A stretch of 64,000 bases of DNA from a plasmid. The stretch lies in sequence record NZ_CP024444.1; one strand, written 5' to 3'. How positions within the stretch are numbered: position 1 is the stretch's first letter; each line of letters begins with the position of its first letter. This document shows, piece after piece, positions 23,551 through 63,340 of this stretch. The notes beneath the pieces are model-generated. The model ran no database searches, was not told the origin of the DNA, and was given only the letters and a program-made list of their open reading frames with translations. The position numbers and the translations under genes are program-made.

Positions 23551-24021
23551 TTCTTGAAGGACTTAATCATATCTCTATATTTTCATCCAAGTTTTCATGT
23601 ATCTTGGCGTTGAATTCGCTTAAAGGAAGTTTTCTGTTTCTAGCTTATGAAGTTCTCGCCTTTCTTACCAAAACATACTGAATTTTTTTATTAATAGCTA
23701 ATGTCAGATGCGCTCTAAGCTCGATGGTTGGGCAATCTTCACTTGAAATGTCATTAATGCTTTTTAAAATTTCAGTTTTTTAAAAATAGGTTCTGACAAT
23801 AACTGCTTCATCCCAAAAATTTAATAAGAATTTCTTGAGTAACGGGAGATAGACAATTTTTTATCACGGTTTGCGCCGCTTCTGCCCTATATGTAATGCC
23901 CTATATTTAACTTTTGAAATAGCGATAGCTTGATTTAGGTTTTGTCCAGCCAAAAACCGCAGGACTTTTATTCTGTCGCCTTATGGCGACAACGATTCGG
24001 GTTTTTGGGCTGTTGGGCTAA

Positions 24022-24333
24022 TTAAGGTTTATTGCTTTCCTTATTTTTCACTTTTTCGCGATTGGCTTTTATCCTATCAACCGATTTTTTAGTTTCATTA
24101 TCAAGTTGTGGTGCGGTGTTACCAACGGTTTGTAAATCAACTTTTAGTCGAATATTTTGGATATGTCGCTCTCGATTTTGGTTTTGTACATCGGCTTGAT
24201 GAAAAAATGCTTGGATAAAAAGCAAGGTCAAGCTAAAGACAAAAGCAAAAAGAAAGATACCGTTACGGACTTCTTTTAGTGTGCCTTTGGCTTTGTCGCC
24301 AATTTCTAACTTAAAGTTATTTGATAGTTTCAT
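24022..24333 (-). CDS. small single-TM membrane protein (last unit of the array)
   Basis: 103 aa, preceded by a degenerate copy of the conserved promoter/leader module at 24340-24480. Confidence 0.5.
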   Translation of the reverse strand: MKLSNNFKLEIGDKAKGTLKEVRNGIFLFAFVFSLTLLFIQAFFHQADVQNQNRERHIQNIRLKVDLQTVGNTAPQLDNETKKSVDRIKANREKVKNKESNKP

Positions 24334-24731
24334 AATGTTTTACCTTTTTGGAAGTAGAAATGTGATTGAGCCTATCTCGAAATCACCTGCTTATAATAAC
24401 GGTTTTAGCGTGTATTGTCAAGCGGTTTAACCGTTTTTTTCATGTAAAGAAAAGTAACCAAACATAGGCTGTGCCTAGCTTTTAGCCTATTTTGACTACC
24501 AAAAAATGCGTTACAATTTTCCCCATATTTAAGGTTTTTCTAAACCCATTTCACCCTGTATGTAATGGCTTTTCAAACCACTGTTCACCCTATAATTAAA
24601 GGCTTTTCTTGAATTAGCGATAGCTTGATTTAGATTTATCCGCACCCAAAAAAATGCCCAAGCAATCGCAAGGGCAAAGTTGACATTCGGGGAATGGGTA
24701 GGCAATCACGCCTACCGTTTTCATTTGGGGG

Positions 24732-25049
24732 TTACTGGTAGTAATTGTAGCAATCGCCAAGCAGTTTCATAAAGTCGTCACGACGGTTTTCCATTTCGGT
24801 TTCCACATCGTCAAATTTACCATCTTCGTTACATTCTTCATCCACGTAAAGGCTCACATCATCATCTAACATCAGGTAGCGTAAACCCTCAATGACAATG
24901 AAGTTACCTATGGCACGTACTGGGTAGCCATAGTGTACCCATGATGCAGTGAATTGTTCGGTGTCGCTGTCAAAACTGATATTTGGGCTAACCTTAAGAA
25001 TATCGTTAACAACTTCTTGGGCTTTGGTGTTATTGGTAGTGGTAGTCAT
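24732..25049 (-). CDS. small acidic hypothetical protein
   Basis: 105 aa and highly acidic (D/E-rich). The conserved module lies upstream at 25050-25200. Confidence 0.5.
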   Translation of the reverse strand: MTTTTNNTKAQEVVNDILKVSPNISFDSDTEQFTASWVHYGYPVRAIGNFIVIEGLRYLMLDDDVSLYVDEECNEDGKFDDVETEMENRRDDFMKLLGDCYNYYQ

Positions 25050-25210
25050 AATTTCGTTCCTTGTGGTTGGTATGGTTTCGAGCCTTTCTCGTTTCCATGT
25101 GCTTATTATGACGGTTTAACCGTTTATAGTCAAGCGGTTTAACCGTGTTTTACCCATTTTCCGACGAACGGTAAAACCGTTTTCGACCACATTTCAGACA
25201 TTTATCCCTC

Positions 25211-25500
25211 TATTTAAAAAACCATGACCACGGCTTTTGGTGGTAATGGTTGCAATCTTTTCAGGCAATCATTCCCACGGCTTTTGGTGGGTATGAGGCC
25301 CTCTTGTCTTAGCTCGGATAGTCAAGGCTGGCAAGTATGAAATGCAGGCAATCGCCTACGGATCATGCGGCTTGATGACTTATCGCGTTAGCAGGAAGTC
25401 AGTAAGACCATGAAGCCGTCAGCGAGTGACAAGAGTAATACTGCCAAGACTGACGTTGCTGGCGTCTTTTTGCCAGCAATCCGCCAAAGTCTTTATCAGT
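25211..25500. repeat. 290-bp GC-rich repeated element, copy 1 (candidate structured ssDNA/RNA element)
   Basis: It is about 97% identical to 27968-28258, non-coding, and contains internal direct repeats (CACCAAAAGCCGTGG twice) and the hairpin GCTGGCgtctttttGCCAGC. Confidence 0.6.
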
Positions 25501-25524
25501 TAAAAAACTAACCTTTGCGCAAAT

Positions 25525-26001
25525 TTATGAATTATCTAAAGTAGCTTTATTGGCTAATAACCGAATTAAATCTTTTAACTCATAATCTTTGTGAGCAATA
25601 GCACCAACCTTAATTAACCCATTCTCAATATGGTATAAATCATAAACAATAGCGTCTGATACCAAAACGGGTTGTTCATCAGGTACATTAATATCAATTA
25701 ATCGGATAACAGGTTCGCTATCATCATCCACGCCAGCCGAACCAAAACGTTCTGCACTCACAATAAAAGAAACATCGAAACCATCTAGCCAAAGTTCAAA
25801 TAAAAGACTTGCCGGGATATCACGACTACCTTTTTCATAATTGGCATACGTGGATTGGGCAATCGCTAATCGCTCATAAACAGATTTAGCCGTATAACCT
25901 AACCTTAACCGTTCTTGCTTTAATCGCTCACCGATAAACTTGAACGGATATTTTTTAAATTCAGCATCAATCTTTGCCATAAGTTGTTCTTGGGGGTTCA
26001 T
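25525..26001 (-). CDS. XRE-family (Cro/CI-type HTH) transcriptional regulator
   Basis: 158 aa with an N-terminal HTH (IGERLKQERLRLGYTAKSVYERLAIAQSTYANYEKG). Its own upstream region lacks the conserved promoter module but keeps the TAGCGATAGCTTGATATAG motif. Confidence 0.65.
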   Translation of the reverse strand: MNPQEQLMAKIDAEFKKYPFKFIGERLKQERLRLGYTAKSVYERLAIAQSTYANYEKGSRDIPASLLFELWLDGFDVSFIVSAERFGSAGVDDDSEPVIRLIDINVPDEQPVLVSDAIVYDLYHIENGLIKVGAIAHKDYELKDLIRLLANKATLDNS

Positions 26002-26153
26002 GAGTAAATCCTATGTACCAGTATAAGTATAGTCATATAAAATGCATTAAATATAGCCATTTGACCACATGTTGTCTATCACAACGATAGCATCCATAAG
26101 TAACATTTGTATTAGCGATAGCTTGATATAGTCCATCACGCCAAATTTTTGGA

Positions 26154-26193
26154 AAAAAACCCAACCAATTTTTTGGCTGGGCGTTGGGTTTGA
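26154..26193 (-). terminator. rho-independent terminator after unit 26247-26609
   Basis: On the minus strand a GC stem (CCCAACGCCCAGCC...GGTTGGG) is followed by a T7 run. Confidence 0.5.
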
Positions 26194-26902: not shown

Positions 26903-27799
26903 TTAAGCGGCTATGGGTTGTTTCTTCTGCGACCAATTTTCTAAGATGTAATTAACTGCTTTTTGGGCGTCCGCTGAAGCTTTGAAGATGGCGCGTTTGT
27001 CAGCTTTTAGCACTTGTAACCATGATTTTAAATAGCTTGCATGGTTGGTTAGTGTGGTTTCTAAGCATCCCATTTCAGCGCATAAAAAGCTTGCGCCTAG
27101 TTCTGCTACAAGTTCCTCCCGAGCGTATGCGGTATCACCGAATTTTTTACCGTATTGGCGGTTTAATCGTTTTTCTGCACCCGTGCTGTGGACTAGCTCA
27201 TGTCCAAGCGTCGCAAACTGTTCATCTAGGTTTACAAAGTCGCTTGCATTCGGCATGCATATCGTATCGATGTAGGGTTTATAACAAGCTGAATTGTAAC
27301 CGTATTCAATTTTTACGTCGGTATTTGCAAAGATGGTTTTTGCGGTTTCATTCTCTGCAATGGGTGTTAACGTTTCGTCTTCATCAGGGGTGATTGCGCT
27401 AATATCGCCATCCATTTGGCTAATGTTAAACACACAAAAACTATTTAAAAATGGGATGGTTTCGATGTCACCCTCTTTGTTTTCTTTCTCAATGACATTG
27501 TAATATGCTAGGCGTACCGATTTTGCACCTTTTTTAACCTGTAAGTTTTTGGCTTGGGCTTGCTTGTAGGTCATCCATACATTGTATTTATAATCGCTGT
27601 TAATCATGGCTTTGGCTAAGATTAGACGATTAACGCCTTTGTAGAGTTCACCTGTTGAGCCATTGACGCCACCGAAAATGTTGGTAACCGGACGGGTTTT
27701 CCAGCCTTTTTTCCATTGTGGTAAATCAGTTTCAAGAAGTTCAATCATTGCATTGGTTACTTCTTGGTACATATCGATTTTAGTAGCTGATTTTGTCAT
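26903..27799 (-). CDS. ardC: ArdC-like antirestriction protein (N-terminal ssDNA-binding domain plus zincin-like metalloprotease domain)
   Basis: N-terminus MTKSATKIDMYQEVTNAMIELLETDLPQWKKGW and the HExxH motif (LGHELVHSTGAE) match ArdC. The true start is the ATG at 27797-27799, which follows an AAAAGGA RBS. The ORF track extends upstream through the leader. Confidence 0.8.
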   Translation of the reverse strand: MTKSATKIDMYQEVTNAMIELLETDLPQWKKGWKTRPVTNIFGGVNGSTGELYKGVNRLILAKAMINSDYKYNVWMTYKQAQAKNLQVKKGAKSVRLAYYNVIEKENKEGDIETIPFLNSFCVFNISQMDGDISAITPDEDETLTPIAENETAKTIFANTDVKIEYGYNSACYKPYIDTICMPNASDFVNLDEQFATLGHELVHSTGAEKRLNRQYGKKFGDTAYAREELVAELGASFLCAEMGCLETTLTNHASYLKSWLQVLKADKRAIFKASADAQKAVNYILENWSQKKQPIAA

Positions 27800-27967: not shown

Positions 27968-28258
27968 ATTAACAACCATGACCACGGCTTTTGGTGGTGA
28001 TGGTTGCAAGCTTTTCAGGCAATCATTCCCACGGCTTTTGGTGGGTATGAGGCCCTCTTGTCTTAGCTCGGATAGTCAAGGCTGGCAAGTATGAAACGCA
28101 GGCAATCGCCTACGGATCATGCGGCTTGATGACTTATCGCGTTAGCAGGAAGTCAGCAAGACCATGAAGCCGTCAGCGAGTGACAAGAGTAATACTGCCA
28201 AGACTGACGTTGCTGGCGTCTTTTTGCCAGCAATCCGCCAAAGTCTTTATCAGTTTAA
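27968..28258. repeat. 290-bp GC-rich repeated element, copy 2
   Basis: Near-identical to 25211-25500. It is followed by about 700 bp without a convincing ORF (28260-28945). Confidence 0.6.
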
Positions 28259-28901
28259 TCACCACGGCTTACCAACTAACCAATAACACCAACTAACCTA
28301 ACATCTTGCCCATCCATAAAATCCACATCAGCCTAAAACACCACAATAGACACCACCATGGCAAAACCTTATGCTAGAACCATAATAGCCTCTACTGCAT
28401 TAAGTATATATGCACTAACAAAGGTGACTTACCGGGTAACCACTTATGGCTAGTACATCACGCCAATATCAACCTATCATCGATACCAAACTCACCAAGC
28501 TTGGGCTAAAAAGTCAGGTAAACCAGTTCATTAAACTAACTGCCATAATCATGGTAATGCCAACAGTGATAGCAAATTATCTCGTCACACTGCTAACTAT
28601 TCATAAAAAAGCGAATCGATTAAGACTGCAGGCGCAATTGCCGATACCGACGTTAAAGCAGGCTTATCTTCTGCTTATCAAAGCAAACGACGTGTAAACC
28701 TGACAAGGTCTTAACCGTACTATAAAAGCACCTAAATAGCCTACCTGACTAAAGCCGTTGTATGGGGGTATCTATAAGTAACGGCTACGAGCAATAGATT
28801 ATCCAATCAATGCCTAAGCCAGTTAACTTCCACTTTGTTTTAGCGATAACTTGATGTAGGCTGCCAAACCACACGCCAGTCTTGCCATTAACCGCTGCCC
28901 A

Positions 28902-28928: not shown

Positions 28929-28947
28929 CTATTGGGTGGTAAGTGGG

Positions 28948-29624: not shown

Positions 29625-30557
29625 TTAGGCGCGTGAGAGTAAAGCTGGTGTGTTTTGCTCAAATGGCGTCACGATGTAGCTAACGTTGCCATTAAAATCA
29701 GCACTACCAATGCATGATAACGGCTTACCAATGAAATTGTCTTTAATCGGTCTGCCTTTGGCGTCACTGGTAACCGCCTGTACCAATAAGATGGTATCAA
29801 AGTTTTCGCTATTCATGCCAAGCTTGACCACTTGGTAGAACAGTTTGGCATCGGGTTTGCTAGTTGAGCTTGCCTGTAAAAAATCACCGACCTTTAATTG
29901 CTCGTTGTATTGGTTTTCTACCATATCCAAGCTTAGGGTGAGCTGCTTGTAAACTTCAATCAAGGCTTCAAACAAGTCAGCCGGGTTATCAAAATGGCAA
30001 GCACTGCTTTGGTTAAATACGGCAATACCGATAGGGCGTTTACCGTCATAAGCCACAATCATCATGATACTAGCGTTCAAGTAGCTTAAAATTACATCGG
30101 TCCAGGTGGCGTTGAATTTTTCTTTGACCAGTGCGCGACGTCCCTGTACCAATTGATTGCTTTCAAAGTTGTTGCGTGACTCGTTATCGTCGACGACAAG
30201 TTTACCCTTTGGGCTTAATTGGTTGTAGGCAACTTGGGCTTGCTTGATGGTAAATTGGTCAATGTATTTGACATACTGACTAATTTCTTCAATGGTGGTT
30301 ATCATGTCAGGATAAAACAAGGTATTTAGGTTTTTAAGCGGCTGCCCGGTGGGTACGTGCATCTTAGACTGGTTGTCGTGCGTTCTAATCACAGTAAAAG
30401 GTGGGGTCAGTAGTGTGCCTTTGCTGTGGATTTTGCCGTCATCATTGACCAGCGCATTGTGCCCAGCTTTGCTTTCAGCCATCCAGCTGCCCAGCATCAG
30501 CTTATGATTTTTACTGTATTTGAAGTTATCAATAATAGCGATTAGGGTGTTTTTCAT
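29625..30557 (-). CDS. family B paralog (unknown function; motifs GTLLTPPFT, IMxxFA, QVGD, IRCIAxD)
   Basis: 310 aa. It shares conserved blocks with 31896-32939, 33051-34037, 36738-37736, 38502-39515 and 44536-45495. Confidence 0.55.
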   Translation of the reverse strand: MKNTLIAIIDNFKYSKNHKLMLGSWMAESKAGHNALVNDDGKIHSKGTLLTPPFTVIRTHDNQSKMHVPTGQPLKNLNTLFYPDMITTIEEISQYVKYIDQFTIKQAQVAYNQLSPKGKLVVDDNESRNNFESNQLVQGRRALVKEKFNATWTDVILSYLNASIMMIVAYDGKRPIGIAVFNQSSACHFDNPADLFEALIEVYKQLTLSLDMVENQYNEQLKVGDFLQASSTSKPDAKLFYQVVKLGMNSENFDTILLVQAVTSDAKGRPIKDNFIGKPLSCIGSADFNGNVSYIVTPFEQNTPALLSRA

Positions 30558-30848: not shown

Positions 30849-31607
30849 TTATGCTAAGGGACGTTTTTTGCTCTTGGATTTATCATTTTTACGGCATTCA
30901 TTTAATGCCACAAAACTTTTAGCAAGGGTTAGGATGCCTTCTTTATATACTTTCCAAAAATCTAAGGCATCGAATTCCATTCGGGCTATCTCGCTACTGC
31001 TAAAATTTTCCCATTCTTCGATGGTGTGGCATTTACAGCCGATACGGATTTTGTCATTCATCAAGCTGATAAACCACTGATAATCATATAAACACAATAC
31101 CGGATAAGGTAGCTTGGCGAAGGTGATATTTGCACCACGAAAAATGGCTTGTTCAATGTCGCATTGGGTGAAGTCGGTTTGTTTCAATGATGCGTTGGTA
31201 AAGTTGGTATTAATGGTATTGGCATTGGTAAAAATTGAGCAATCAAGGTTACAGCCATCAAGATGGGTTAATTCTAGGTTGCTATCCGTAAAGTTACAAT
31301 TGCTAAGGTTGGCTTGATAAAAATAAGCTTGGCGTAAATCTGCGTTGGTAAAATTTACCCGACGTCCTTTTACATTGGTCATGTTGGTTTGGCATAAGTT
31401 AGCATTTTCAAAATTGGCATTGCTGATATCGCAGTTAATAAGGCTTGCACCGAATAAATTTGCACCGCTTAGGTTTGCACCTGTTAAATCAAACCCTTTT
31501 AAGTCCATGTCTTTTAAGTCGATGTTGCGTAAGTCGGCTTTAACTAGGGTGTCTAAATCAAGTGTGATAGTCGATTTGTTGTATACATGCTTGATGGTGA
31601 TAGCCAT
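30849..31607 (-). CDS. pentapeptide-repeat protein with conserved C-terminal RIGCxCH domain
   Basis: 252 aa with tandem A(D/N)LxX pentapeptides (ANLSGANLFGASLINCDISNANFENANL...) and the C-terminus ...WFISLMNDKIRIGCKCHTIEEW. Confidence 0.75.
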   Translation of the reverse strand: MAITIKHVYNKSTITLDLDTLVKADLRNIDLKDMDLKGFDLTGANLSGANLFGASLINCDISNANFENANLCQTNMTNVKGRRVNFTNADLRQAYFYQANLSNCNFTDSNLELTHLDGCNLDCSIFTNANTINTNFTNASLKQTDFTQCDIEQAIFRGANITFAKLPYPVLCLYDYQWFISLMNDKIRIGCKCHTIEEWENFSSSEIARMEFDALDFWKVYKEGILTLAKSFVALNECRKNDKSKSKKRPLA

Positions 31608-31895: not shown

Positions 31896-32939
31896 CTAAA
31901 TACCGTATTTGGACTTAAAAGTTTCAGTCGGAAAGTTGGTCATGACCTTGTCATGTTTGGCAGTCACCATGATTTGTGTATTAACGACAGTCACAAAACA
32001 TTCAATCGGTGGTGTGATGTATGCGCCTTGTTTTGGCATAGTGGTCGCTAACATGGGGTTGTCGGCATCTTCAACAAAACCACTAATACCACGGATGATT
32101 AACGTTTGACCACCATAAAAATCATCGTTGACCACATCAATCACTTCATAGTTTTGACATAAGCCCATTAATAGCCATTTTGAATAAGCACTGCTATAAC
32201 AAATGATATCACCCACCTGAAGTGACGGGTTTGATTGGGTGTTAAGTGATGGCTTGATAGCATGACCAAGTTCGACATATAAATCTGCCATTAATTTTAA
32301 AATCAAGTTTTGACCTTTGTATTCAATTACGCCACGATGGGTAAACAACACAAGCCCACGATGGGTACTAGCGGTGTTATAGGCAAATACCATAAACTCA
32401 CCATCACGGTAGACGCTTAACAATTCGCTATCAGCATAGTCAAGGTCGGTACAGATGTAGTTTTGGCGAGCAAGGTACAATGGGTCGTTTAAAAATGCGT
32501 TGGGGTCTTGGGGGTGTTGGGCAATATCAAGCACCGCTTTGTCAGTGGCTTTGTAGGCATCATGGAATGAATTGAGCATATTTTGGTCAAGGGTTTGGAC
32601 GTATTGTTCCATCTTAGTTTTGCAATCATATACCACATGGTAACTGCTCACCCATTCACCTTTATAAAAGGATGGATATTTACCACTATTGGGGTTTTCC
32701 ATCACCCAAATGGCGGTTTCTTTGCTGTATTTAATCTCGCTATTGGGTAAAAACATCGCTTTGGTTACGATAAAGCCGTTAGTGCCGTTTTGTCTGATTA
32801 ATGGCTTGATGCTATCAATGCGGTCTTGGATTTCATCAATCAGTTGGGCGTGGTCATGGCTTGTAATCACGCGCTTAGTAAGGTCGTAAAAACGTGGGAT
32901 TGATGTGTTTTGTGGTTTGAGTAAAACGATATCGCTCAT
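31896..32939 (-). CDS. family B paralog
   Basis: 347 aa with the shared motifs (LPNSE..., MVFAYN, QVGDII, IIRGISG). Confidence 0.55.
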   Translation of the reverse strand: MSDIVLLKPQNTSIPRFYDLTKRVITSHDHAQLIDEIQDRIDSIKPLIRQNGTNGFIVTKAMFLPNSEIKYSKETAIWVMENPNSGKYPSFYKGEWVSSYHVVYDCKTKMEQYVQTLDQNMLNSFHDAYKATDKAVLDIAQHPQDPNAFLNDPLYLARQNYICTDLDYADSELLSVYRDGEFMVFAYNTASTHRGLVLFTHRGVIEYKGQNLILKLMADLYVELGHAIKPSLNTQSNPSLQVGDIICYSSAYSKWLLMGLCQNYEVIDVVNDDFYGGQTLIIRGISGFVEDADNPMLATTMPKQGAYITPPIECFVTVVNTQIMVTAKHDKVMTNFPTETFKSKYGI

Positions 32940-33050: not shown

Positions 33051-34037
33051 TTAAGCCACTGCCGGATGATGGTTTGGGTGGGTACCATAAACATCAAGCA
33101 CATTTAAGGCGTGTCTTGTCCCTGCCAGTCCATTAAATATCACCACACCATCCGCGCCTGTGTACAAGCAGATATCAAGGGGTGCGCCAATATACTTACC
33201 GCGAATAGGTTGGAACTTTTTATCAAACATAATCGCTTGCATCTTGCCTGTCTGCATCTGCCCACTATTTGGCGTATCAAGGTGGGTGACTTCATAAAAA
33301 TGGGTATGAGAGCATTCGTCCATGGCATTGGCTAAAATCGTACCTATCTCAATTGGCTTGCTGTCATTGGCGTGGCTTAATGCCTTTTGGGTATCGACGT
33401 GGTCTTCAATCGCATCATATAGGTGCGCCATGACCAATAGAATACTATTCCACCCGTGATAAAAATAGGTGGCATGGGGCAAGCACAAGGCATAGCCTTT
33501 TTTGTGTTCTTCGGTGGTGGCAAACAATAAAATATCATCATCAAGCCAACTGCCAATTAACTCAACATAGCGAGCATTAAAATAGCTTTTTACGCCCTCT
33601 AAGCGATTGCTATACAATGGGTGCAAGTGGCTGTGGATGTGGTAGCCTTGCTTTTGGACAATGGCTTTGGTCTGTTCGCTTGCATCCTTGAGCCTTTCTT
33701 CAAAGTCAGTGATTTGCTGACGGTCACGCTCAAGCACGAATTGACGAGCCGACCACAACTCCCCAAAAAAGTAACTAGGCGTGGTGTATTCAGCATCAAG
33801 TAACGGGCAATCATTGCGTGACGTGAGCACATAACGCCCATTGTTATTGACCGATAGCAAACAAGGCGGCTGAAATAGCGTACCATCACAAAAATAGACG
33901 CCATCTTGAACGTGGCTTTTTTTGGTGACCCGTTGAAAAGGTTGTGAGCAAGTTTTGCTTAGTCCGCGCATTTCTTCGCATAGGGCTAGATGGTCGGTGC
34001 TGTGTACGATACTTTTCATCAAAACATATAAATTCAT
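33051..34037 (-). CDS. family B paralog (second gene of a two-gene unit)
   Basis: 328 aa. It has no full module of its own; the module lies upstream of the preceding 38-aa peptide gene. Confidence 0.5.
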   Translation of the reverse strand: MNLYVLMKSIVHSTDHLALCEEMRGLSKTCSQPFQRVTKKSHVQDGVYFCDGTLFQPPCLLSVNNNGRYVLTSRNDCPLLDAEYTTPSYFFGELWSARQFVLERDRQQITDFEERLKDASEQTKAIVQKQGYHIHSHLHPLYSNRLEGVKSYFNARYVELIGSWLDDDILLFATTEEHKKGYALCLPHATYFYHGWNSILLVMAHLYDAIEDHVDTQKALSHANDSKPIEIGTILANAMDECSHTHFYEVTHLDTPNSGQMQTGKMQAIMFDKKFQPIRGKYIGAPLDICLYTGADGVVIFNGLAGTRHALNVLDVYGTHPNHHPAVA

Positions 34038-34113
34038 GGCAATTATCCTATTGGTTTTAAGTGGTGGGTGGGCGGTAAGTGAGCCTTTCTCAACTAACCG
34101 TTAATCAGCATTA

Positions 34114-34519: not shown

Positions 34520-35266
34520 CTAGGCGACTTGCTTTTTAGATGGCGTGATTTTTTTAAGCTGTTGCTCACTAAACGCGGTAGCGATGGCTAAAATTTCCTC
34601 TTTGAATTCTTCCCAAAACTCAATGGCGTAGTCATCCATATCAATGATTTCGTTACCATCAAAATTACGCCATTCTTCAATGCTATAACATTTACAGCCA
34701 ATGCGTAGCATATCGTCACATACGCTGATAAACCACTCATAGTTATACAGGCAAAGCAATTTTTTGGGTAATACGGTGCAATCTAACACGGTATAGTCAA
34801 AAACCGTTCGACGAATATCCGACTTCATCAAATTAGCTTCAGTTAAATTGGCACAGGTAAATTGCGTGGTGTCCAAATTGGTGTTGTTAAAGACCACCCA
34901 TTGAAAATTTGAACGGTATAAATTGGATTTGCTTAAATTCACATTGTCAAAAATTGCATGTTTAAAGTCGGCATTGGAAGCCACCACCATTGCCATATTC
35001 GCATTACTAAAGTCGGCATTGCCTGCCCTTGAGCCATTTAAATTGGCGTGAGTCATGTTGGCATGACTAAAATTAGCTTCAAACAGTTCGCAGTCGGTCA
35101 TAATAGCCCGTGATAAATTGGCACCGCTAAAATTTGCCTTGGATAAATCAACACTGGTAAAAATAGCACCAGCTAAGTTTTGACCGCTAAAGTCATAGCC
35201 TTGCAGGGTATCAGCATCGATAACTAGGTCGTCTTTCTTGCCAAAAAATTTAATGGTAATACTCAT
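34520..35266 (-). CDS. pentapeptide-repeat protein with conserved C-terminal RIGCxCY domain
   Basis: 248 aa with pentapeptide tandems and the C-terminus YEWFISVCDDMLRIGCKCYSIEEW. Confidence 0.75.
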   Translation of the reverse strand: MSITIKFFGKKDDLVIDADTLQGYDFSGQNLAGAIFTSVDLSKANFSGANLSRAIMTDCELFEANFSHANMTHANLNGSRAGNADFSNANMAMVVASNADFKHAIFDNVNLSKSNLYRSNFQWVVFNNTNLDTTQFTCANLTEANLMKSDIRRTVFDYTVLDCTVLPKKLLCLYNYEWFISVCDDMLRIGCKCYSIEEWRNFDGNEIIDMDDYAIEFWEEFKEEILAIATAFSEQQLKKITPSKKQVA

Positions 35267-35604: not shown

Positions 35605-36432
35605 TTAGCTGACTTGTTTTTGTCCCTGAAAGATGCTCACGCCCATACCGACATCGTCATGTTTTTGTTGATATAAGCCGTCTTTAAATTGGTAGTCTTT
35701 TTCATACGAATGGTAGAAAGCACAGGCGATTTCGAGTATTTCATATTTATGCCAACGCCAAAACGATAAGGCTTCATCGCCCATATTCTCAATTTGCTCT
35801 GCGTTAAAGTCTTTCCATTGTTTGATGGTATGACACTGGCATCCAATACGGATGGTATCGGCACAAATAAAAATTGGCCAGTTGTAATGATACAAAAACA
35901 TCACCTTAAAAGGAAATAAGGCGGTCATGATGTTTGTTCCCCAAAAAATAGCGTAGCGGATGTCTGCTTGCTGAAAGTCGGCACAGCTAATAGTGGCGTT
36001 AAAAAAATTGGTTGCTAGTAAATCTGCCTTATCAAAACTTGCTTGCACAAGACTTGCGCCCGTGAATTGGGCATACTGACAGTTGGCATCATGAAAATTA
36101 CTAAAATTAAAATTGGCATGACTGGCATGAATGCTTTTGAGATTGGCGTGTTTAAAGCGTCCCTTCAGTAGCGTTGCGCTAGTAAAATTAGCCCCTTGTA
36201 AATCAGCGTTTTCAAAATTGACATGATTTAACGTCGCCTTATCAAAACGCGCATACTGTAAATTGCATCCGCTAAAATTGGCATTGGTTAAGTCCATGCC
36301 GATAAAGTCAGCACCTTGTAAATTGGCACCGCTAAAATCATGCCCCACAAGACTGTCGCCCTCGATGGTTGCAAGGATGGCTTTTGATTTGAAGGAATTA
36401 TGCGTAAGGTAGCTTTGAATTTCGATGGTCAT
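35605..36432 (-). CDS. pentapeptide-repeat protein with conserved C-terminal RIGCQCH domain
   Basis: 275 aa with pentapeptide tandems and the C-terminus ICADTIRIGCQCHTIKQW. Confidence 0.75.
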   Translation of the reverse strand: MTIEIQSYLTHNSFKSKAILATIEGDSLVGHDFSGANLQGADFIGMDLTNANFSGCNLQYARFDKATLNHVNFENADLQGANFTSATLLKGRFKHANLKSIHASHANFNFSNFHDANCQYAQFTGASLVQASFDKADLLATNFFNATISCADFQQADIRYAIFWGTNIMTALFPFKVMFLYHYNWPIFICADTIRIGCQCHTIKQWKDFNAEQIENMGDEALSFWRWHKYEILEIACAFYHSYEKDYQFKDGLYQQKHDDVGMGVSIFQGQKQVS

Positions 36433-36737: not shown

Positions 36738-37736
36738 TTAGCGTGGGACGGCTTCAACTACCCTTAATCGGGCATTGTACAGCAAAAGCGACTGCTGACT
36801 ATCTACTTTTAAATAACCGTTGACGTGTTTGGCAATACAAGCAATCTCACTGCCTAAAAATGCATTGGTGATTGGATTGTTTAGGCTGTCATAGGCAATA
36901 CAGCGCAGTTTAATGGCGTTGCCTTGTTTGCTGATGTTCTCGCCTACTTGGGTGATTTGGTAGTATTGGCTCGGGTTGGTGTTGTTAAACCGTTCAAGTC
37001 TTACAATACTACCGACACCGATATCTAGCATATTTTCCGGTTGTTGGTTGTTGTAAAGAAATAATTTGGCGGTTTCACAAAAACCATAGAGTTTGCTCAT
37101 GACGTCTAAAATGCTATTAAGTCCATAGCTTAAATACATACTGTTGTCGCCATACAGCGCATAGCCTTGTGAATAGCTTTCTTTGGTGGGCGTGGTGCAA
37201 GCAAATAGCATGATGGTATCATTGGCATAACTGCCGATAAGTTCAGCTTGCGTATTTTGAAAATACTGCTTGGTGAATGCTAAACGTGGGGCATGCAGTG
37301 GGTGAGCTTGGCTTTGCTCGCTCACCTGGTTGTTTTGTGCCAAGTTGCGCACGTCTTTACTGGCGTTTTCATACGCAAATTGAAAGCATCCGATTGCGCT
37401 TAAATCATCACATTTGATACGCAACAGGGCAATTTCTTCGCTCAAAAAGCGGTGATTTTTTTGTAGCTCGGTACAATCGATTAAATACTCGCCATTGATG
37501 GGTTGTACGGTGTAAAAATCTTCTTCCCCCACGACATTACTACGCTCAAGGGTTGTGATAGGCTGTAACAAGGTGGGCGTGGTGACAAAACCGGATGCAG
37601 TTTTTTCGATGGTGGCACGGTGCTGTTTCTCAAGCTTGAATAACTGCTTAATGAGTGCCGAATGATTATCGCTTGCCATGACAAGACGCATGACTTGTTC
37701 AGGGGTGATAGGGGCTTGGGTGCTATGGCTTGGCAT
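36738..37736 (-). CDS. family B paralog
   Basis: Start reassigned to MPSHSTQAPI (ATG at 37734-37736, after AAAAGGA). The ORF track extends 95 codons upstream through the module. Confidence 0.55.
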   Translation of the reverse strand: MPSHSTQAPITPEQVMRLVMASDNHSALIKQLFKLEKQHRATIEKTASGFVTTPTLLQPITTLERSNVVGEEDFYTVQPINGEYLIDCTELQKNHRFLSEEIALLRIKCDDLSAIGCFQFAYENASKDVRNLAQNNQVSEQSQAHPLHAPRLAFTKQYFQNTQAELIGSYANDTIMLFACTTPTKESYSQGYALYGDNSMYLSYGLNSILDVMSKLYGFCETAKLFLYNNQQPENMLDIGVGSIVRLERFNNTNPSQYYQITQVGENISKQGNAIKLRCIAYDSLNNPITNAFLGSEIACIAKHVNGYLKVDSQQSLLLYNARLRVVEAVPR

Positions 37737-39515: not shown

Positions 39516-39879
39516 AATTTTTATCCTTTTGGTCGGGGTCGGACGCAAGCCTATCTCGCTATCCATATAGCTATAATAACGGTTTAACCGTGTATAATCA
39601 AGCGGTTTAACCGTGTTTTTACCCGTTTTCCGATAAACGGTAAAACCGTTTTTCGGGTCGGCTGACACGTTCCCCCGTACTTTAGGATGCTTTTTTTGAT
39701 GTAGTAATAACTTGGTTTAGATCGGTTCACTCGCCCATCGACGACAACTTGCCAGCAACAGGCAATAAAAAACCCACTGTCATGTGACAGTGGGGGGATT
39801 TTCCCAACCACGAGAAAACTAGAAAATTCGGTAATATTTAGCTTGCCAGCATCGCCAGCTGTGGACTTATCGCTTCAAT

Positions 39880-41044: not shown

Positions 41045-41344
41045 ATTTTTTCCTTTTGGTTGGGTGTAGGAATTGAGCCTTTCTCGTTTCCATGTAGTTA
41101 TAATAACGGTTTAACCGTGCATAGTCAAGCGGTTTAACCGTGTTTTTACCCATTTTCCGACGAACGGTAAAAGCGTTTTTCGGGTCGGCTGGCACGTTTC
41201 CCCATACGTTACGATGCTTTTTTTGCATTAGTGATAACTTGATATAGGATGTTGCCGAGCGTACCCATAAGGCATGCCAAACCTACCTGTCAAAGCAAAA
41301 AACCCTAGTCTTTGGCTAGGGTCTTAATTGTGGGGTTTAAGTGC

Positions 41345-46512: not shown

Positions 46513-46824
46513 TGGAATTTTCCTTTTGGTCGGGGTCGGAATTGAGCCTATCTCGTTTCCATGTGTCTATAATAACGCTTTAACCGTGTATAATCAAGCG
46601 GTTTAACCGTGTTTTTACCCATTTTCCGACGAACGGTAAAAGCGTGTTTTACATCGGCTGGCGCGGTTTGCCCATATTTTAGGTTTTTATGATATAGCGA
46701 TGTCTTGGGTTAGCGTCCTCTCGCCTGCCAATTTACAAGCAAAAATAAACCCACTGTCATTTGACAGTGGGGGGTTTTTCCCAACCACGAGAAAGCTGTT
46801 TGATGCGTTTAGGTAGGCAGCATC

Positions 46825-51383: not shown

Positions 51384-52003
51384 GTATCATAAAACAACAC
51401 GCTGTCGGTAATGTCTTGCCCACCTTTGATGGGTTTAACGACGGTATAGTAAATTGGTTGGTCATACCAAGTGCCGACATGGGTATAATTTTCGGTAGAC
51501 GCATCGAATTGGTAATCGCCACCGCCCTTACGTTCTTTTGACAACCGTGTCAACATAGCCAGTGGGCTTATGAGGCTTTGACGGGCATTTTTCGCTTGAG
51601 TAATCTTGCTTAAATCGATGTAGTTTTCGGTTTCAGGGCTAACAAGATAACCCACTAAGTGGGCATCGTAAGTTTCCGCCTCTGTCTCAAATCGTTTCAT
51701 AAACTGCTTGATTGCTCGTTTACTCCCAATCACATCATAACTATGACCCTCTGCTACGCTGTCGTCATAATTACAAATGGTTGTCACTCGCGCAGGCTTA
51801 TCAACGTCGGTTTCTTCGGCTAATAATTGGTAGATGGCATGATGTTCATATACGCCAAAATAAAAGCTTTCAAGAAATTTCAACATGCTATGCGCTACGG
51901 TTAATTGCACATTATTTGAAAAGGTTGGTAATTTGATGGCGCAGTTTTCATCTTTATTAAAACTAAACTCACCGACTAGACTGGTTTTAAAATAAGCACC
52001 CAT
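51374..52003 (-). CDS. hypothetical protein
   Basis: 209 aa with the module upstream (52010-52150). It is the first gene of a two-gene unit. Confidence 0.45.
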   Translation of the reverse strand: MGAYFKTSLVGEFSFNKDENCAIKLPTFSNNVQLTVAHSMLKFLESFYFGVYEHHAIYQLLAEETDVDKPARVTTICNYDDSVAEGHSYDVIGSKRAIKQFMKRFETEAETYDAHLVGYLVSPETENYIDLSKITQAKNARQSLISPLAMLTRLSKERKGGGDYQFDASTENYTHVGTWYDQPIYYTVVKPIKGGQDITDSVLFYDTWD

Positions 52004-52258
52004 GATATTTTATCCTGTTGGTTGGGGTCGGACGCGAGCCTATCTCGTTTCCATGTGCTTATAATAACGCTTTAACCGTGTATAATCAAGCGGTTTAACC
52101 GTGTTTTTACCCATTTTCCGATAAACGGTAAAAGCGTTTTTAAAGTCGGCTGGCACGTTTCCCTACAGGTAAGAATGCTTTTTTGATATAGCGATAATTT
52201 GATATAGTACATCACGCCCATCGGTGTCACCAAACTGTTTGGGTGACACTAACCCACT

Positions 52259-54338: not shown

Positions 54339-54713
54339 TTAGTTATAGCTACAATAATAATCAGGTTTATAACTACCATTATCTTCAGGCTGTTTTAAGG
54401 CTGCCAATGAAAAAGCATCCAATCTCACCCGAACATTTACCTTATCCCCGTTTTGGTAAATACTGGCGCGTGTATCGAATTCTTCACCGATAAAATCATC
54501 TTTGCTTGGCACTTTTCTGCCTGCGCCATAGCCGATACTTTCCACCACTTTTGCGCCAATTTCACGCAAAGTCAGGGTGGATTTATCTTTGATGCCGACC
54601 ACCTGGTAGTAGTCAATGTTGGTTTGCTCATAGCCCCAGCTGCTCACAAAGACGTCGCCTGCTTTTACCGATGGTATTAATTGTTGGGTGCTGGTTGTAA
54701 TCGCTGTAGTCAT
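54339..54713 (-). CDS. family D protein (short form)
   Basis: 124 aa, about 75% identical to the C-terminal half of 55015-55740. An identical terminator lies downstream. Confidence 0.5.
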   Translation of the reverse strand: MTTAITTSTQQLIPSVKAGDVFVSSWGYEQTNIDYYQVVGIKDKSTLTLREIGAKVVESIGYGAGRKVPSKDDFIGEEFDTRASIYQNGDKVNVRVRLDAFSLAALKQPEDNGSYKPDYYCSYN

Positions 54714-55014: not shown

Positions 55015-55740
55015 TTAATAGTAGCTTGAGAAATAATCAGATTTGTAACTACCATCTGCTTCAGGTTGTTTTAAACTTGCCGATGAAAAACTATTTAACG
55101 ACACGCGCACGTTCACATTGTTTCCGATTTTGTAAATATTGGCGCGTTTATCGAATGCCTCACCGATAAAATTATCCTTGCTTGGCACTTTTCTGCCTGC
55201 ATCATAATGTGTGCTTTCTACCACTTCTGCGCTAATCTCACGCAAGGTAAGCGTTGATTTGCCTTTGATGCCGACTACTTGATAGTAATCAATGTTAGTT
55301 TGCTCATAGCCCCAGCTGCTCACAAAGACATCGCCCACTTTAACAAACTTTTCAATCTCATTTTGTAGGGCTTTTTGCTCTTCTTTGCGCTGTGCCTTGT
55401 TCTGTGCCGAGAGTAAATTTCTTTGTGCCCATGTGCGGATAAAATCTATCATTTTGCTTTCACTGCTAAATAGATAGTTAAAAACTGGTTTGACTGTACG
55501 ACCCACAAAACCCATTGCCACGAAATCATTAGAACCTTTGGCAATATAGACCATACCGTTAAAACCTTCAAAGAAAAAGGCTAACTTTTTGCCATAAGCG
55601 TTACTTTCACGCTGTTCTATGATTGCTTGGTTGGTTTTGAATTTCTTACCGTCCAAACCCTTTTGAAAGTCGTTTAAAGCCTGTTGCGCATCGGCTAACA
55701 TGGCTTGGTTTACGCTTGTTTCGATTGCTGAAGTCGTCAT
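55015..55740 (-). CDS. family D protein (long form with extra N-terminal domain)
   Basis: The true start is MTTSAIETS. Its C-terminal 110 aa are paralogous to 54339-54713. Confidence 0.5.
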   Translation of the reverse strand: MTTSAIETSVNQAMLADAQQALNDFQKGLDGKKFKTNQAIIEQRESNAYGKKLAFFFEGFNGMVYIAKGSNDFVAMGFVGRTVKPVFNYLFSSESKMIDFIRTWAQRNLLSAQNKAQRKEEQKALQNEIEKFVKVGDVFVSSWGYEQTNIDYYQVVGIKGKSTLTLREISAEVVESTHYDAGRKVPSKDNFIGEAFDKRANIYKIGNNVNVRVSLNSFSSASLKQPEADGSYKSDYFSSYY

Positions 55741-56072
55741 GATGTTATTCCTTTTGGTTGGGTGTTGGAATTGAGCCTTTCTCGTTTCCATGTGCTTATA
55801 ATAACGCTTTAACCGTTTATACTCAAGCGGTTTTAGCGTTTATTTGATGATTTTCCGACGAACGGTAAAACCGTTTTTTTGCTTTTTGGCTGGCACGTTT
55901 CCCTAAAATTGATGGTTTTTTATTTGATATAGCGATAACTTGATATAGTGCACCACGCCCACCCGTGCCAACCAAGCTGGCTTGTTGACACCAAGCGTTA
56001 AAAATACTGGACAATAAAAAACCCACTGTCATGTGACAGTGGGGGGGATTTTCCCAACCACGAGAAAATTGT

Positions 56073-60612: not shown

Positions 60613-60973
60613 AATTTTTTATCCTTTTGGTTGGGTGATGGTAGCGAGCCTATCTCGTTTCCATGTGCTTATAATAACGCTTTAACCGTGTACAATCAAG
60701 CGGTTTTAGCGTTTATTTAAGGGTTTTCCGATAAACGGTAAAAGCGTTTTTTAACAAGCTGCCGCATGCCAAACCACTTCCCCCATAGATAATGTCCACT
60801 GTCTTAGCCATCGCTTGCTCTAGTACATCACGCTAGTTACTTAACCGATTTAGTTATGTTTTGACGTTAATTTAGTTCTAAATCAAATCCAATATAGTTT
60901 TAATAAGGTGACTGCTAAAAATTTAGGCAAAAAAAACCAGCGAATTTACGCTGGTTGTCAAACAGGATGGGGC

Positions 60974-61735
60974 TTAATGAATGATGGGTGTATCAAACAT
61001 AAAGCCAAGCTCTTTAAGTGGCAAAAAGATATCAATATAGGATTTGCCCACAAAATCCCTTGCCTCGATAGCTAGTCGCACTTCTAGCTTACTTGCAAAG
61101 TTAAAGTCATAACGAATAGCACCTAGACCAAACCAACGAAAATCGATGATACCGTAACGGTCGTTACAATCAGGGTTACTCACCACGTTAAAAGGTAGGG
61201 CAAAGTCAGCTGACACACGCATATCACGGTAATTAAAATCAGAGACGGCTTCAATCCGTGCTTGCCGTGCTAACAATTCATCGAGTGAATTCACATTCAT
61301 GACGTCGTTTAGAAAACTGCGCATTTTTGTTTTAAGGTACTTCATTTCATCCACTGATAGACTAATTAAAGCATCTGACGGCATCACCATGCCAAGTTCA
61401 TCGTCTTGGTTATCATAAAGCCCACATACGCCTAGTCCAATATCGTTGCCTTGTTCCTTTTGCAATGCATGGGTTTTACCGATGACACCGATTTGGGTGC
61501 TCATGTTGCTATCAATCTGATTAATATCAATGCACCCACGTTCTGTGGTCTCACCATCATTCATTAAACTGTCGTTTAAACCGAGCACATAAAATGCCTG
61601 CTCATTTTTTAAATGTTGTAACAGTTGTTCGCTGATTTTGTATTCGTCAGTGCACAACACCAAGCCATCGGCAAATGATAGGTCAATGTTGGTTTGGCTA
61701 TCGCCTTTTGTACTGGTTGGGTTAGCGGTGGTCAT
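60974..61735 (-). CDS. hypothetical protein (first unit of the array)
   Basis: 253 aa with a full module upstream (61745-61960). Confidence 0.45.
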   Translation of the reverse strand: MTTANPTSTKGDSQTNIDLSFADGLVLCTDEYKISEQLLQHLKNEQAFYVLGLNDSLMNDGETTERGCIDINQIDSNMSTQIGVIGKTHALQKEQGNDIGLGVCGLYDNQDDELGMVMPSDALISLSVDEMKYLKTKMRSFLNDVMNVNSLDELLARQARIEAVSDFNYRDMRVSADFALPFNVVSNPDCNDRYGIIDFRWFGLGAIRYDFNFASKLEVRLAIEARDFVGKSYIDIFLPLKELGFMFDTPIIH

Positions 61736-61999
61736 AATTTTATCCTTTTAGGTTGGGTGTTGGAATTGAGCCTTTCTCGTTTCCATGTAGGTATAATAAC
61801 GGTTTAACCGTGTATAGTCAAGCGGTTTTAGCGTTTATTTAGCGATTTTCCGATGAACAGTAATAGCGTCATAATTCGATTTTCCACTGCATTATCCCCA
61901 AAATTAAGTCTTGTAATTGTATTAGTGATAGTTTGAAATAGGGGTATTATTGCTGACGTTGTAAGGCCAACTTAAGTGGACTACACGGCTAATTGCTGG

Positions 62000-63340
62000 C
62001 AAGGTGTCATCTTGCCAGCTTCACATTGATTGAAGCAATCGCAGATTAATTAGATATAATGGCTTGCACTATATCAATACGTTTTCCGATCTAAATTTCT
62101 TCTTTAACTAACATATATTCTCTTGACTCCCCCCCCCCCTTGCTAAAGCAAGGGGATTCCTTCCACAAGACGGTCAAGCCCGACCGCAAGAATGTTTTTA
62201 CTGGCATTGATATCTCTATCATGCCATGTGCCACACGAAGCACAAGTCCATTCCCTTATTCCAAGCGATTTTCTACCTTTCGGACTATTGTCGGTGATTT
62301 CACCACAACACGAACATCGCTGGGTCGTGTATCGTTCATTCACGATTTCAAAACGGCAACCTGCGTTCTCGCATTTGTAGGCCAGTTGTTGTTTCATTTC
62401 AAACCAACCTGCATCGTAAACCGATTTGGCTAGTTTGCCTTTTTTACTGTTAAATTGATTGGTTTTAACGTCACCAACTACAATTAGGGCATTGTCTTTA
62501 ACTAGTCGTGTGGTGAATTTGTGAATTAGGTCTTGCCGTGTATGTTTGATTTTGGCATGGATTGCCTTGACACGCTGTTTGTTTTTGGCACGTTGGGCGG
62601 TAGCTAACGCTTTGGCATATTTAAGCGTTTGCTTGATTTGTAGCTTGTCACCGTTTGAGGTGGTGGCACTTTCCTTTAAGCCTAAGTCTATGCCAACACT
62701 ACCAGTACCACATGATTGTTTGGGATAGTCTTTGACGGTGACACAGGCATACCAACGATTACGGCTGTCTTGCACGACCTCAAGGGTGTTGATTTGGTAA
62801 AGCGATAGGTTGTAGCTGTCCCATAGGTCGATGATTAGCTTTTGTCCTTTGGCTAGGCTTAGTTGTAGTGTTGATTTTAAGCCCTTTTTACCAGTTTGGT
62901 GCGTGGCAATATGCTTAATGGCAGATTGTTTAAATGGTAGCCAACCCAAGCTTTTACGCTTAGAGTTTGGGTTGTTGGTTCGCCATGATAACTTAGCTTT
63001 TTTGAATTGCTTACGGCTTTTGGCGTGGGTTTCGTTGATGGCTTGGATGGTCTGACTGTGTAAGCCAAGTAGTTCACCGCTACCTTTGGTGTAGTCGTTT
63101 AGGTCATAAGCACTAAAGAACTTGCCAGTTTTTTGTAGGTGTCTGTAACTCAAATCATTGACATAATTCCACACGAAATTGACTGAACCGCTTAGGCGGT
63201 TTAATTGGTCTGCGTGTTTATCTCGTATGCGTAACTTGAGTGTTTTCATGGGTTTATTTTAACACATTTAGCAAAATTTTGTGCGTAAGCATGGTTACGG
63301 AGTTGCCTTATATCCACCGCCTGAAGTCGGTGGTTTTACG
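62000..63340 (-). mobile_element. IS200/IS605-family element of the tnpB-only (IS1341-like) type; ends approximate
   Basis: The 5' side of tnpB has the hairpin CCACCGcctgaagtCGGTGG at about 63308-63327 (LE-like). The 3' end overlaps a strong hairpin CCCCTTGCtaaaGCAAGGGG at about 62140-62160 and is followed by about 140 bp of non-coding sequence (RE/omega-RNA region). Confidence 0.5.
62143..63249 (-). CDS. tnpB: TnpB (IS605 OrfB family RNA-guided endonuclease)
   Basis: 368 aa with a RuvC-like split domain and a C-terminal zinc finger (CSCCG...CASCG), typical of OrfB/TnpB. Confidence 0.8.
   Translation of the reverse strand: MKTLKLRIRDKHADQLNRLSGSVNFVWNYVNDLSYRHLQKTGKFFSAYDLNDYTKGSGELLGLHSQTIQAINETHAKSRKQFKKAKLSWRTNNPNSKRKSLGWLPFKQSAIKHIATHQTGKKGLKSTLQLSLAKGQKLIIDLWDSYNLSLYQINTLEVVQDSRNRWYACVTVKDYPKQSCGTGSVGIDLGLKESATTSNGDKLQIKQTLKYAKALATAQRAKNKQRVKAIHAKIKHTRQDLIHKFTTRLVKDNALIVVGDVKTNQFNSKKGKLAKSVYDAGWFEMKQQLAYKCENAGCRFEIVNERYTTQRCSCCGEITDNSPKGRKSLGIREWTCASCGTWHDRDINASKNILAVGLDRLVEGIPLL

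Follow-up and report, generated by a model that had tools for sequence, protein, structure and literature searches.

A 38-kb array of repeated promoter modules on a Moraxella osloensis plasmid is probably a repressor-controlled establishment regulon of mostly single-gene units

The CUP-controlled regulon of IncN plasmids consists of four to six co-oriented operons, each carrying a conserved repeat that is both promoter and ArdK site, and recombination between these repeats rearranges the region (PMC5371602, PMC6289460). In R388, ArdK represses PardC, Pssb and three other promoters, and the promoters overshoot on transfer (PMC3937220). In T4-type phages, PeSL promoter/terminator cassettes shuffle ORFan early genes (PMC2839356, PMC4122927). 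Here we analyse a 64,000-nucleotide stretch of plasmid DNA (sequence record NZ_CP024444.1), referred to below as the window, which contains a 38-kb array of co-oriented genes with 36 copies of a common promoter module. The array is probably, though by no means certainly, the establishment (most likely leading) region of a ~250-kb M. osloensis type-IVB conjugative plasmid, built as one large repressor-controlled regulon of insulated, mostly single-gene units. The closest described system appears to be the IncN CUP-controlled regulon, and by analogy the array would be a greatly expanded, non-homologous variant of a plasmid establishment regulon. An earlier note on this DNA, made from the sequence alone, had described the architecture as unrecognised, which was an overstatement, since the IncN CUP regulon and the ArdK regulon of R388 share the design (PMC3937220 for R388).

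Counting minus-strand open reading frames (ORFs) of at least 38 aa with a Shine–Dalgarno (SD) sequence gave 43 between positions 24022 and 61735, and coding sequence makes up only 68% of the array. The large co-oriented array reported in the earlier note therefore stands, but its count of approximately 47 genes does not, and the statement that all genes lie on the minus strand holds for the 43 ORFs but not for one plus-strand ORF at 28446–28697. Most intergenic regions contain a terminator followed by a promoter. A hairpin with a T-run, predicted to act as an intrinsic terminator, was found within approximately 120 nt past the stop codon for at least 29 of the 43 ORFs, in keeping with the suggestion that the units are insulated from one another. 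Near-identical 63-nt 3′ ends (75–90% identity), including the terminator CCCACTGTCAnnTGACAGTGGG, are found at 39758–39820, 46735–46797 and 56007–56069, behind genes that differ.

The leader core GAGAWAGGCT occurs in 38 copies, all in a single orientation, with none on the other strand. At least two exact copies of a 13-bp palindrome, which we refer to as the box (sequence form ACGGTTAAACCGT), lie within 92 nt upstream of 36 of the 38 leader copies, and all three boxes are present in 22. The claim of about 35 module copies was thus close, there being 38 leaders, 36 of them with promoter and boxes. The pattern TTG...-17-TAWWWT is matched by 32 of the 38, with TTGATT, TTGACT or TTGACA as the −35 hexamer and TATTAT or TATAAT as the −10, the usual combination being TTGAYT-17-TATWAT. 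A 42-nt pattern comprising box, −35, box and −10 has 30 matches, compared with 0.00 expected. Conservation is not confined to sequence resembling a ribosome-binding site, which would have undone the proposed module: over the ~95 nt from box 2 to the SD the mean pairwise identity is 78.5%. Unrelated ORFs do share the same expression signals, namely a sigma-70 promoter, a CA-rich leader and an AAAAGGA SD, as had been proposed. The coordinates of one reference unit are given in Table 1.

The boxes are highly specific to the array. Their 12-nt core gives 156 strand hits (~95 sites), all inside the array, where shuffling predicts 0.18, and none occurs elsewhere in the 64-kb window. Their positions relative to the promoter are also fixed. 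One box takes up the 17-bp spacer and adjoins the −10, a second abuts the −35, 23 bp upstream of the first, and in 22 units a third is found 34–36 bp further upstream; the start-to-start spacing is 23 bp in 34 cases and 34–36 bp in 23 cases. This triple-palindrome arrangement has the appearance of an operator layout, of the kind typical of a repressed near-consensus promoter. The palindromic boxes, a feature absent from the earlier note, would turn a set of identical expression signals into one co-repressed regulon. In the modules at 35298, 36464 and 59141 the −35 TTGAYT is swapped for ATATTA (…GCTATATTAAACACGC…), with boxes, −10 and leader retained, and this subtype may be weaker or differently regulated.

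Transcription is predicted, from the −10 TATWAT, to start at the A of CATGG, which forms the foot of a leader hairpin whose loop lies 41–54 nt from the ATG. All 33 of the 33 distinct leaders fold around the same GAG-AWAGG-CUC top, and the outer stems vary yet remain complementary (GGAA/UUCC, GUGAUU/AAUCAC, AGAUA/UAUCU, CAAG/CUUG, CUUA/UAAG and AAUAGC/GCUAUU). When arms were swapped, leaders with their own 3′ arm folded at a mean of −7.1 kcal/mol, as against −5.7 kcal/mol with the arms of other subtypes (Wilcoxon p = 2.6e-4); the case for the hairpin is made by this test and the per-sequence folds. That the hairpin persists at 34081 without a promoter suggests that it acts in the RNA. A 5′-terminal stem-loop is a known mRNA stabiliser in Escherichia coli, and the 5′ hairpin probably either stabilises the mRNA or offers its invariant loop as a handle for a common RNA-binding factor.

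The best available comparison is with pMOXF1 (Moraxella osloensis, CP040258.1, 248 kb, circular), which matches window positions 23500–48000 at 97.7% identity and was the sole match among 72,556 plasmids. Its 203.4–246.2 kb segment is colinear with the array at ~98% identity. The whole of pMOXF1 contains 104 box sites, 98 of them in the array and the remaining 6 in three further promoters, which head a HEAT-repeat gene near rep, a 135-aa gene, and a 68-aa gene in a second ssb/pentapeptide cluster. The 135-aa gene is followed directly, on the same strand, by a large class I DNA-methyltransferase gene. The leader hairpin is kept at all three. Since the 6 extra-array boxes also sit in hairpin-bearing promoters, the boxes appear to define a plasmid-wide regulon of ~39 promoters.

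We envisage that the palindromes are operators of one plasmid-encoded dimeric repressor, and that the spacer box and the box abutting the −35 would exclude RNA polymerase when occupied. In an established host, all the units would be held off together. In a repressor-free recipient, the strong promoters would fire at once, until repressor filled the ~100 operators, and the resulting burst would be a zygotic induction, or transcriptional overshoot, like that measured for R388. The terminators would keep the units independent, such that cassettes could be gained, lost or duplicated through module recombination with their neighbours undisturbed. The array would then be a fast-turnover store of establishment or anti-defence genes.

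The only candidate repressor in the window is the XRE protein (26001–25525), the array's sole recognisable DNA-binding protein. Its unit has its own terminator, with motif A (described below) upstream, and its promoter is different and box-free (TAGACA-17-TATATT, 26078–26050), with a palindrome CTATC-N5-GATAG over the −35 (window 26040–26100). A box-free promoter fits a regulator expressed outside the regulon, but does not speak to whether the XRE protein binds the boxes.

Several points weigh against the repressor interpretation. Promoters, start sites, operators and terminators are all predicted from sequence. The autoregulation typical of such networks is not seen, the XRE promoter being without a box, and no DNA-binding domain was found in the small genes behind the three extra-array box promoters. 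Motifs A and B, which lie upstream of the promoters, are left unexplained by a repressor regulon. Pfam returned no relaxase family for the window or for the ~84 scanned pMOXF1 proteins from outside the array, and an oriT was likewise not recognised in either; the leading-region label is for this reason kept tentative. Finally, the leader hairpin covaries only weakly when scored by column (69.7% of cells paired compared with 67.3% after shuffling, 26 of 500 shuffles being as high), and RNAalifold retains only three invariant pairs. This weakness can be attributed to bulges and register shifts that differ between subtypes.

The array shares with the CUP regulon its co-oriented units, a single conserved 5′ repeat in a leading or maintenance region, a cargo of anti-restriction genes and ssb, and recombination between repeats. 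However, CUP plasmids have four to six repeats heading operons, whereas here 36 modules head mostly single genes over 38 kb, making the array ~8-fold larger. The modules share no sequence similarity, in that blastn of the module against the 72,556 plasmids of PLSDB, assumed to include IncN, matched pMOXF1 only. To the CUP design the array adds three palindromic boxes per promoter, a conserved 5′ hairpin and leader, per-gene terminators and a boundary motif. An HTH_3 protein is the array's sole regulator, although no search was aimed at ArdK homology, and transfer is of the Dot/Icm type rather than the VirB type of CUP plasmids. The ArdK/StbA network of R388 (IncW) and the KorA/KorB/KorC network of IncP-1 plasmids (kla/klc/kle) offer a similar parallel, combining strong promoters, shared operators, tight repression in the plasmid-bearing cell and a burst on entry, with ardC and ssb among the targets (PMC3937220). 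R388 has five ArdK promoters compared with ~39 here; these systems lack near-identical 100-nt promoter modules and a terminator for each unit, and their repressor has its own operator-bearing promoter, a negative feedback not seen here.

Two further motifs occur upstream of the promoters. Motif A, GGCGTGATG..CTATATCAAGCTATCGCTAAT (also written GGCGTGATG..CTATATCAAGYNATSRCTAAT), is found ~25 times with a degenerate pattern, CTATATCAAGCTATCGCTAAT alone giving 14 copies at up to 3 mismatches, and GGGGAAACGTGCCAGCCGAC occurs in 11 copies. The upstream half of the module as first described is therefore real in its motifs but not universal, CTATATCAAGCTATCGCTAAT having 14 to ~25 copies and GGGGAAACGTGCCAGCCGAC 11. 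Motif A follows terminators, and also precedes the box-free XRE promoter. Since a copy also closes the array, behind its final gene and with no promoter following, motif A marks the boundaries of units and is not part of the promoter. The half-site CTATC of the XRE promoter palindrome recurs within motif A (AAGCTATCGCT), which hints that the XRE protein might bind motif A instead of the 13-bp boxes. Judged by eye, motif B (TGGCACG..., TAnGTAyGGGG) could be read as sigma-54 or T7-like, but neither reading was kept, as the −12 element and the spacing do not fit.

The module is confined to the pMOXF1-type lineage, which settles the question of lineage-specificity raised in the earlier note. Besides the PLSDB result, the exact degenerate promoter pattern had no matches in 185,579 species genomes. 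A looser two-box pattern gave 3 singleton genome hits and 18 metagenome loci, and the true module was found only in two short contigs of one metagenome sample, one near-identical to the window (L006) and the other checked for the module pattern only (L021). The layout extends further than the sequence. The closest ArdC homologues (46–48% identity) are encoded on a Psychrobacter sp. contig (L029) and on two metagenomic contigs (L028 and L030), in long one-direction runs of small ORFs whose 220–290 bp gaps bear a lineage-specific repeat. In the Psychrobacter array each unit has a terminator, a motif resembling motif A and a TTTACA-17-TATAAT promoter whose spacer is conserved throughout, followed by the hairpin UAGGC-AAUA-AGCCA, a CA-rich leader and a GAGGA SD. 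In L030 (ENA ERZ27236868 contig k141_1586337) the unit has a terminator, AAGnGTGATGTTATTAGTTAAAA (16–19 copies), TTGACA...TATAAT, a leader hairpin with a T-run, and AAAGAGAG. Its promoter spacer holds a palindrome, TGTTATA-CT-TATAACA, unlike the Moraxella boxes, and its cargo includes SSB, ArdC, ArdA and a KlcA-type protein. Within the L030 leader (e.g. 13870–13937), a G+C-rich hairpin and a run of seven or eight T residues immediately precede the SD and resemble an attenuator or terminator, so that the leader logic would differ from that of the Moraxella module. The L029 and L030 modules had no match in PLSDB.

The window has just ssb, ardC, a pentapeptide protein and one small gene in common with these related arrays. 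A shared layout with few shared genes implies that the layout is conserved while operators, leaders and cargo are replaced, and the GTGATG core of the boundary motif is kept between lineages with unrelated promoters. We found no paper describing the pMOXF1 array or its layout. It is conceivable, although we would not expect it, that these arrays represent an undescribed class of cassette platform on type-IVB plasmids of Moraxellaceae and relatives. Each self-contained unit would consist of terminator, boundary motif, operator promoter, structured leader and ORF, and the platform would persist while operators, leaders and cargo turn over. The boundary motif would then have a function of its own, either as a recombination site or as a per-cassette priming site from which each promoter rapidly becomes duplex after transfer. 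New anti-defence or establishment proteins would be stored in the ~35 lineage-restricted ORFs, among them a six-member family not met with elsewhere.

Comparison with pMOXF1 also reveals how units are exchanged. The pMOXF1 array differs from that in the window by an IS5-adhP-IS5 insertion and by exactly one extra unit (773 bp), whose ends fall within a 158-bp module stretch present on both sides (window 52007–52164). The position of these junctions identifies the extra unit as the apparent footprint of unequal homologous recombination between modules, and one whole module-plus-ORF unit differs between these related plasmids, in a comparison that the earlier note had proposed. In addition, the units 54339–54713 and 55015–55740 are a diverged tandem duplicate. 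The promoter modules of paralogues are 81–87% identical while their proteins are 20–41% identical, so the modules must be either strongly constrained or homogenised by recombination.

Such homogenisation or spread is also what would be expected if the repeats were a selfish or passive mobile promoter element, of the T4 PeSL type or a miniature inverted-repeat transposable element, copied by recombination or gene conversion, with no common regulator and with palindromes that are merely structural. Modules ~80–90% alike beside paralogues at 20–41%, the recombination seen between modules, and the precedent of the PeSL cassettes of T4-type phages (PMC2839356, PMC4122927) all speak for this. The likeness to PeSLs is a functional analogy: in both, a terminator and an early promoter are repeated between small same-direction ORFans as substrates for recombinational gain, loss and swapping, and the array supplies the terminator–promoter composite, one whole-unit indel and one tandem duplicate bounded by modules. 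The differences are that one is a phage and the other a plasmid system, and that regulation by a repressor is implied here. In addition, PeSLs are much shorter, and are not known to carry operators or a conserved leader. A freely mobile element is hard to reconcile with 38 of 38 window copies in one orientation and one block, three more box promoters elsewhere on pMOXF1 and none in 185,579 genomes; no terminal inverted repeats or target duplications were seen, and the boxes are the best-conserved part, placed exactly at repressor-type positions. We therefore regard a purely passive element as unlikely, whilst noting that PeSL-like shuffling is compatible with, and included in, a repressor-controlled array.

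Motif A (GGCGTGATG..CTATATCAAGCTATCGCTAAT) lies at the borders of units, also behind the last gene and ahead of the box-free XRE promoter, which raises the question of whether it is a recombination site in an integron-like or other site-specific cassette system. A partly similar motif, AAGnGTGATGTTATTAGTTAAAA, lies at the unit boundaries of L030 despite different promoters there, and cargo turnover between lineages is almost complete. As in integrons, a mobile element here bears a long one-orientation array of small, mostly uncharacterised, fast-turnover genes. In contrast to integrons, every cassette has its own promoter and mostly its own terminator, and Pfam found no integrase, nor any other tyrosine or serine recombinase, among the ORFs of the window in or beside the array, the transposases of the IS elements and TnpB being of another kind (the only rve domain belongs to an IS3-type transposase). 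Where pMOXF1 differs by a whole cassette, which is seen once, the junctions fall in the promoter module and not in motif A. Motif A, judged by eye only, is not an attC-type imperfect inverted repeat (RYYYAAC...GTTRRRY), and no attC sites were apparent by eye, although no formal attC search was made. A site-specific system thus seems to us very improbable. The array is also not a known superintegron, the outcome that would have made it an already described element, given a promoter on every cassette and no tyrosine recombinase by Pfam among window ORFs of at least 60 aa outside IS-internal overlaps.

There is similarly little probability that the palindromes are sites for an activator, or for a partition or silencing protein (KorB/ParB-like or H-NS-like), the array being activated by a signal or coated instead of de-repressed on transfer. 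A cluster of ~100 sites does recall a centromere-like or spreading platform, parA and parB are found just past the array in pMOXF1, and KorB of IncP plasmids combines the roles of ParB and global regulator. However, the spacer of a near-consensus promoter is where a repressor classically binds, and TTGAYT-17-TATWAT promoters need, by their sequence, no activator. The longer palindromic repeats TTGCGTTAACGCAA by the par genes (63365–63608) are likelier ParB sites than the boxes.

At two promoters, those of ardC (copy 2) and of the gene at 25049–24732 (copy 1), motifs A and B are replaced directly upstream by a 285-nt structured element (Table 1). It folds strongly, both as RNA (z = −6.3) and as single-stranded DNA (ssDNA; z = −5.2 and −4.9), and copy 1 ends in a hairpin with a T-run. 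In PLSDB it was found in pMOXF1 only, and a permissive Rfam scan gave chance-level matches only. It could be a small RNA or an ssi/Frpo-like site, and among the features described it is the strongest candidate for an element acting as ssDNA or RNA. The plus-strand ORF of the array lies just downstream, in the plus-strand sense, of copy 2; it encodes an 83-aa hydrophobic protein, annotated in pMOXF1, maybe a small toxin-like or membrane peptide. Rfam recognised no family in the array at the gathering threshold, the only match in the window being the ALIL pseudoknot of the IS3 element, and a permissive scan of a pair of modules gave chance-level matches only.

The structured element bears on whether the modules might themselves be ssDNA promoters or priming signals of the Frpo/ssi type, acting on the folded incoming T-strand before complementary synthesis. 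The array shares with the leading regions of F-like plasmids a genomic niche and a presumed early expression of ssb and anti-defence genes (PMC11541004, PMC9849209), and Frpo-like promoters are abundant in leading regions, with anti-defence genes on the T-strand (PMC11541004). All units are co-oriented, and a primer made at the fixed-orientation boundary motif upstream of the promoters would render the downstream promoter and gene duplex. For the common module, however, no significant structure was predicted in ssDNA: two whole modules of 236 nt folded no more stably than their shuffles (z = −1.74 and −1.53), the folds of the two copies were inconsistent, and the −35 and −10 have no conserved complementary partner. 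With strong structure at only 2 of 38 units, no blastn match beyond pMOXF1 in PLSDB (assumed to hold F-type Frpo plasmids), and palindromes with a 17-bp spacer typical of an ordinary duplex promoter, this reading of the common module is largely refuted, and is the least probable that we considered.

The surroundings of the array are those of a conjugative plasmid, as the ParM and type IV secretion system genes at the start of the window had suggested and as the establishment-type cargo (ssb, ardC, pentapeptide repeats) supports. Pfam also identified DotH, DotI, DotM and a coupling protein in pMOXF1. In that plasmid the transfer genes adjoin the array, DotD lying directly next to the 40-bp repeats, whereas in the window an accessory block intervenes. 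The block includes genes for UvrA-like, NDH-2, esterase, ADH, gshA, ZIP and cydB functions, and a cydA fragment interrupted by an IS3 element. The 40-bp tandem repeats are a candidate centromere, iteron or oriT-accessory site, and the palindromic repeats to the right of the array are likely ParB sites. The ssb and ardC content, the strict co-orientation and the adjacency to Dot/Icm genes are consistent with the array being a leading region.

Pfam names 8 of the 43 ORFs: SSB, ArdC, four pentapeptide-repeat proteins, one HTH_3 protein and a weak DUF2958-like match. The cargo listed in the earlier note was all found, namely SSB, ArdC, the four pentapeptide-repeat proteins, the HTH_3/XRE regulator, two peptides of 38–39 aa and diversifying paralogues, which form 7 families. 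Its view of the region as an anti-defence island is upheld by homology for ArdC alone, the pentapeptide proteins being no more than candidate DNA mimics. For about 35 of the 43 ORFs no known match was found. Searching plasmids with the cargo by tblastn returned pMOXF1 only, PHROGs gave a few families with no assigned function, and NCBIfam gave nothing useful for the array ORFs. Profile searches of the PDB with two paralogue families found nothing. The six-member family (Table 1) had 6 hits in 1.84 billion representative proteins, most of them short fragments and two full-length, the latter presumably this lineage's own copies. One cargo protein has 57 member sequences in public runs. It has no relative in the PDB, and a moderate AF2 model had no fold match.

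Table 1. Positions of the array, its components and neighbouring features (window coordinates unless pMOXF1 is named)
Feature	Position	Strand	Remarks
Whole array	23918-61945	-	43 co-oriented ORFs, 38 leader copies, 36 box-bearing promoter modules
13-bp palindrome ACGST-WWW-ASCGT	24399-61834		~95 sites, two or three per promoter
Reference unit	52001-52219	-	module of gene 52003-51374
Reference unit, boundary motif A	~52219-52187	-	
Reference unit, motif B	52164-52145	-	
Reference unit, box 1	52137-52125	-	
Reference unit, box 2	52102-52091	-	
Reference unit, -35	52089-52084	-	TTGATT
Reference unit, box 3	52079-52067	-	in 17-bp spacer
Reference unit, -10	52066-52061	-	TATTAT
Reference unit, leader hairpin centre	52046-52036	-	followed by CA-rich leader and SD AACAGGA
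Reference unit, ATG	52003	-	
Extra box promoters, outside array	4820-4883; 33683-33750; 41243-41341 (pMOXF1, L024)		three sites
Promoterless leader hairpin	34081-34091	-	between 38-aa peptide gene 34230-34114 and gene 34037-33051
Motif A after last array gene	23918-23938	-	no promoter behind
285-nt structured element, copy 1	25225-25510	-	copies 98% identical
285-nt structured element, copy 2	27975-28258	-	copies 98% identical
XRE/HTH_3 protein	25525-26001	-	Pfam; sole recognisable DNA-binding protein of array
ardC	26903-27799	-	anti-restriction ssDNA-binding metalloprotease family; Pfam ArdcN 5.7e-26, MPTase-PolyVal 1.5e-43
ssb	43714-44208	-	Pfam SSB 3e-33; 60% identical to L030 array SSB
Pentapeptide-repeat proteins (n = 4)	30849-31607; 34520-35266; 35605-36432; 42010-42717	-	Pfam; mutual aa identity 35-41% (blastp)
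Six-member paralogue family	29625-30557; 31896-32939; 33051-34037; 36738-37736; 38502-39515; 44536-45495	-	310-347 aa; 20-29% aa identity
ParM	3-767		100% identical to pMOXF1 ParM/StbA-family protein
Dot/Icm-type (type IVB) transfer genes	1134-4284	-	DotB/TraJ-like ATPase, DotC/TraI-like, DotD-like; Pfam
Accessory block	4588-22701		edged by two IS copies, each with 293-aa DDE transposase; missing from pMOXF1
Sixteen tandem 40-bp units (TTACGCTCAAACCCATTTTTATACGTTATTTGCCATTTTC)	22906-23550		96% matches; between array end and (in pMOXF1) DotD
TnpB gene	62143-63249		right flank of array; in pMOXF1 then parA, parB, rep
102-bp and 46-bp tandem repeats with palindrome TTGCGTTAACGCAA	63365-63608		just upstream of pMOXF1 parA/parB position

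If the array is indeed a single regulon, then ~17% of the plasmid's DNA is given over to ~40 genes switched by one operator, which, to our knowledge, would make it the largest establishment regulon under a single repressor. It would also be a clean system in which to study zygotic induction, with the timing set by the filling of ~100 operator sites. The repeated promoter/terminator module would let the plasmid test, duplicate and discard genes singly, and the little-characterised cargo beside ssb, ardC and the pentapeptide-repeat proteins is a focused list of candidates for new anti-defence functions. The occurrence of the same layout in a Psychrobacter plasmid and in a metagenomic contig suggests a general design, and surveys of leading regions that are keyed on Frpo or oriT would miss such arrays.

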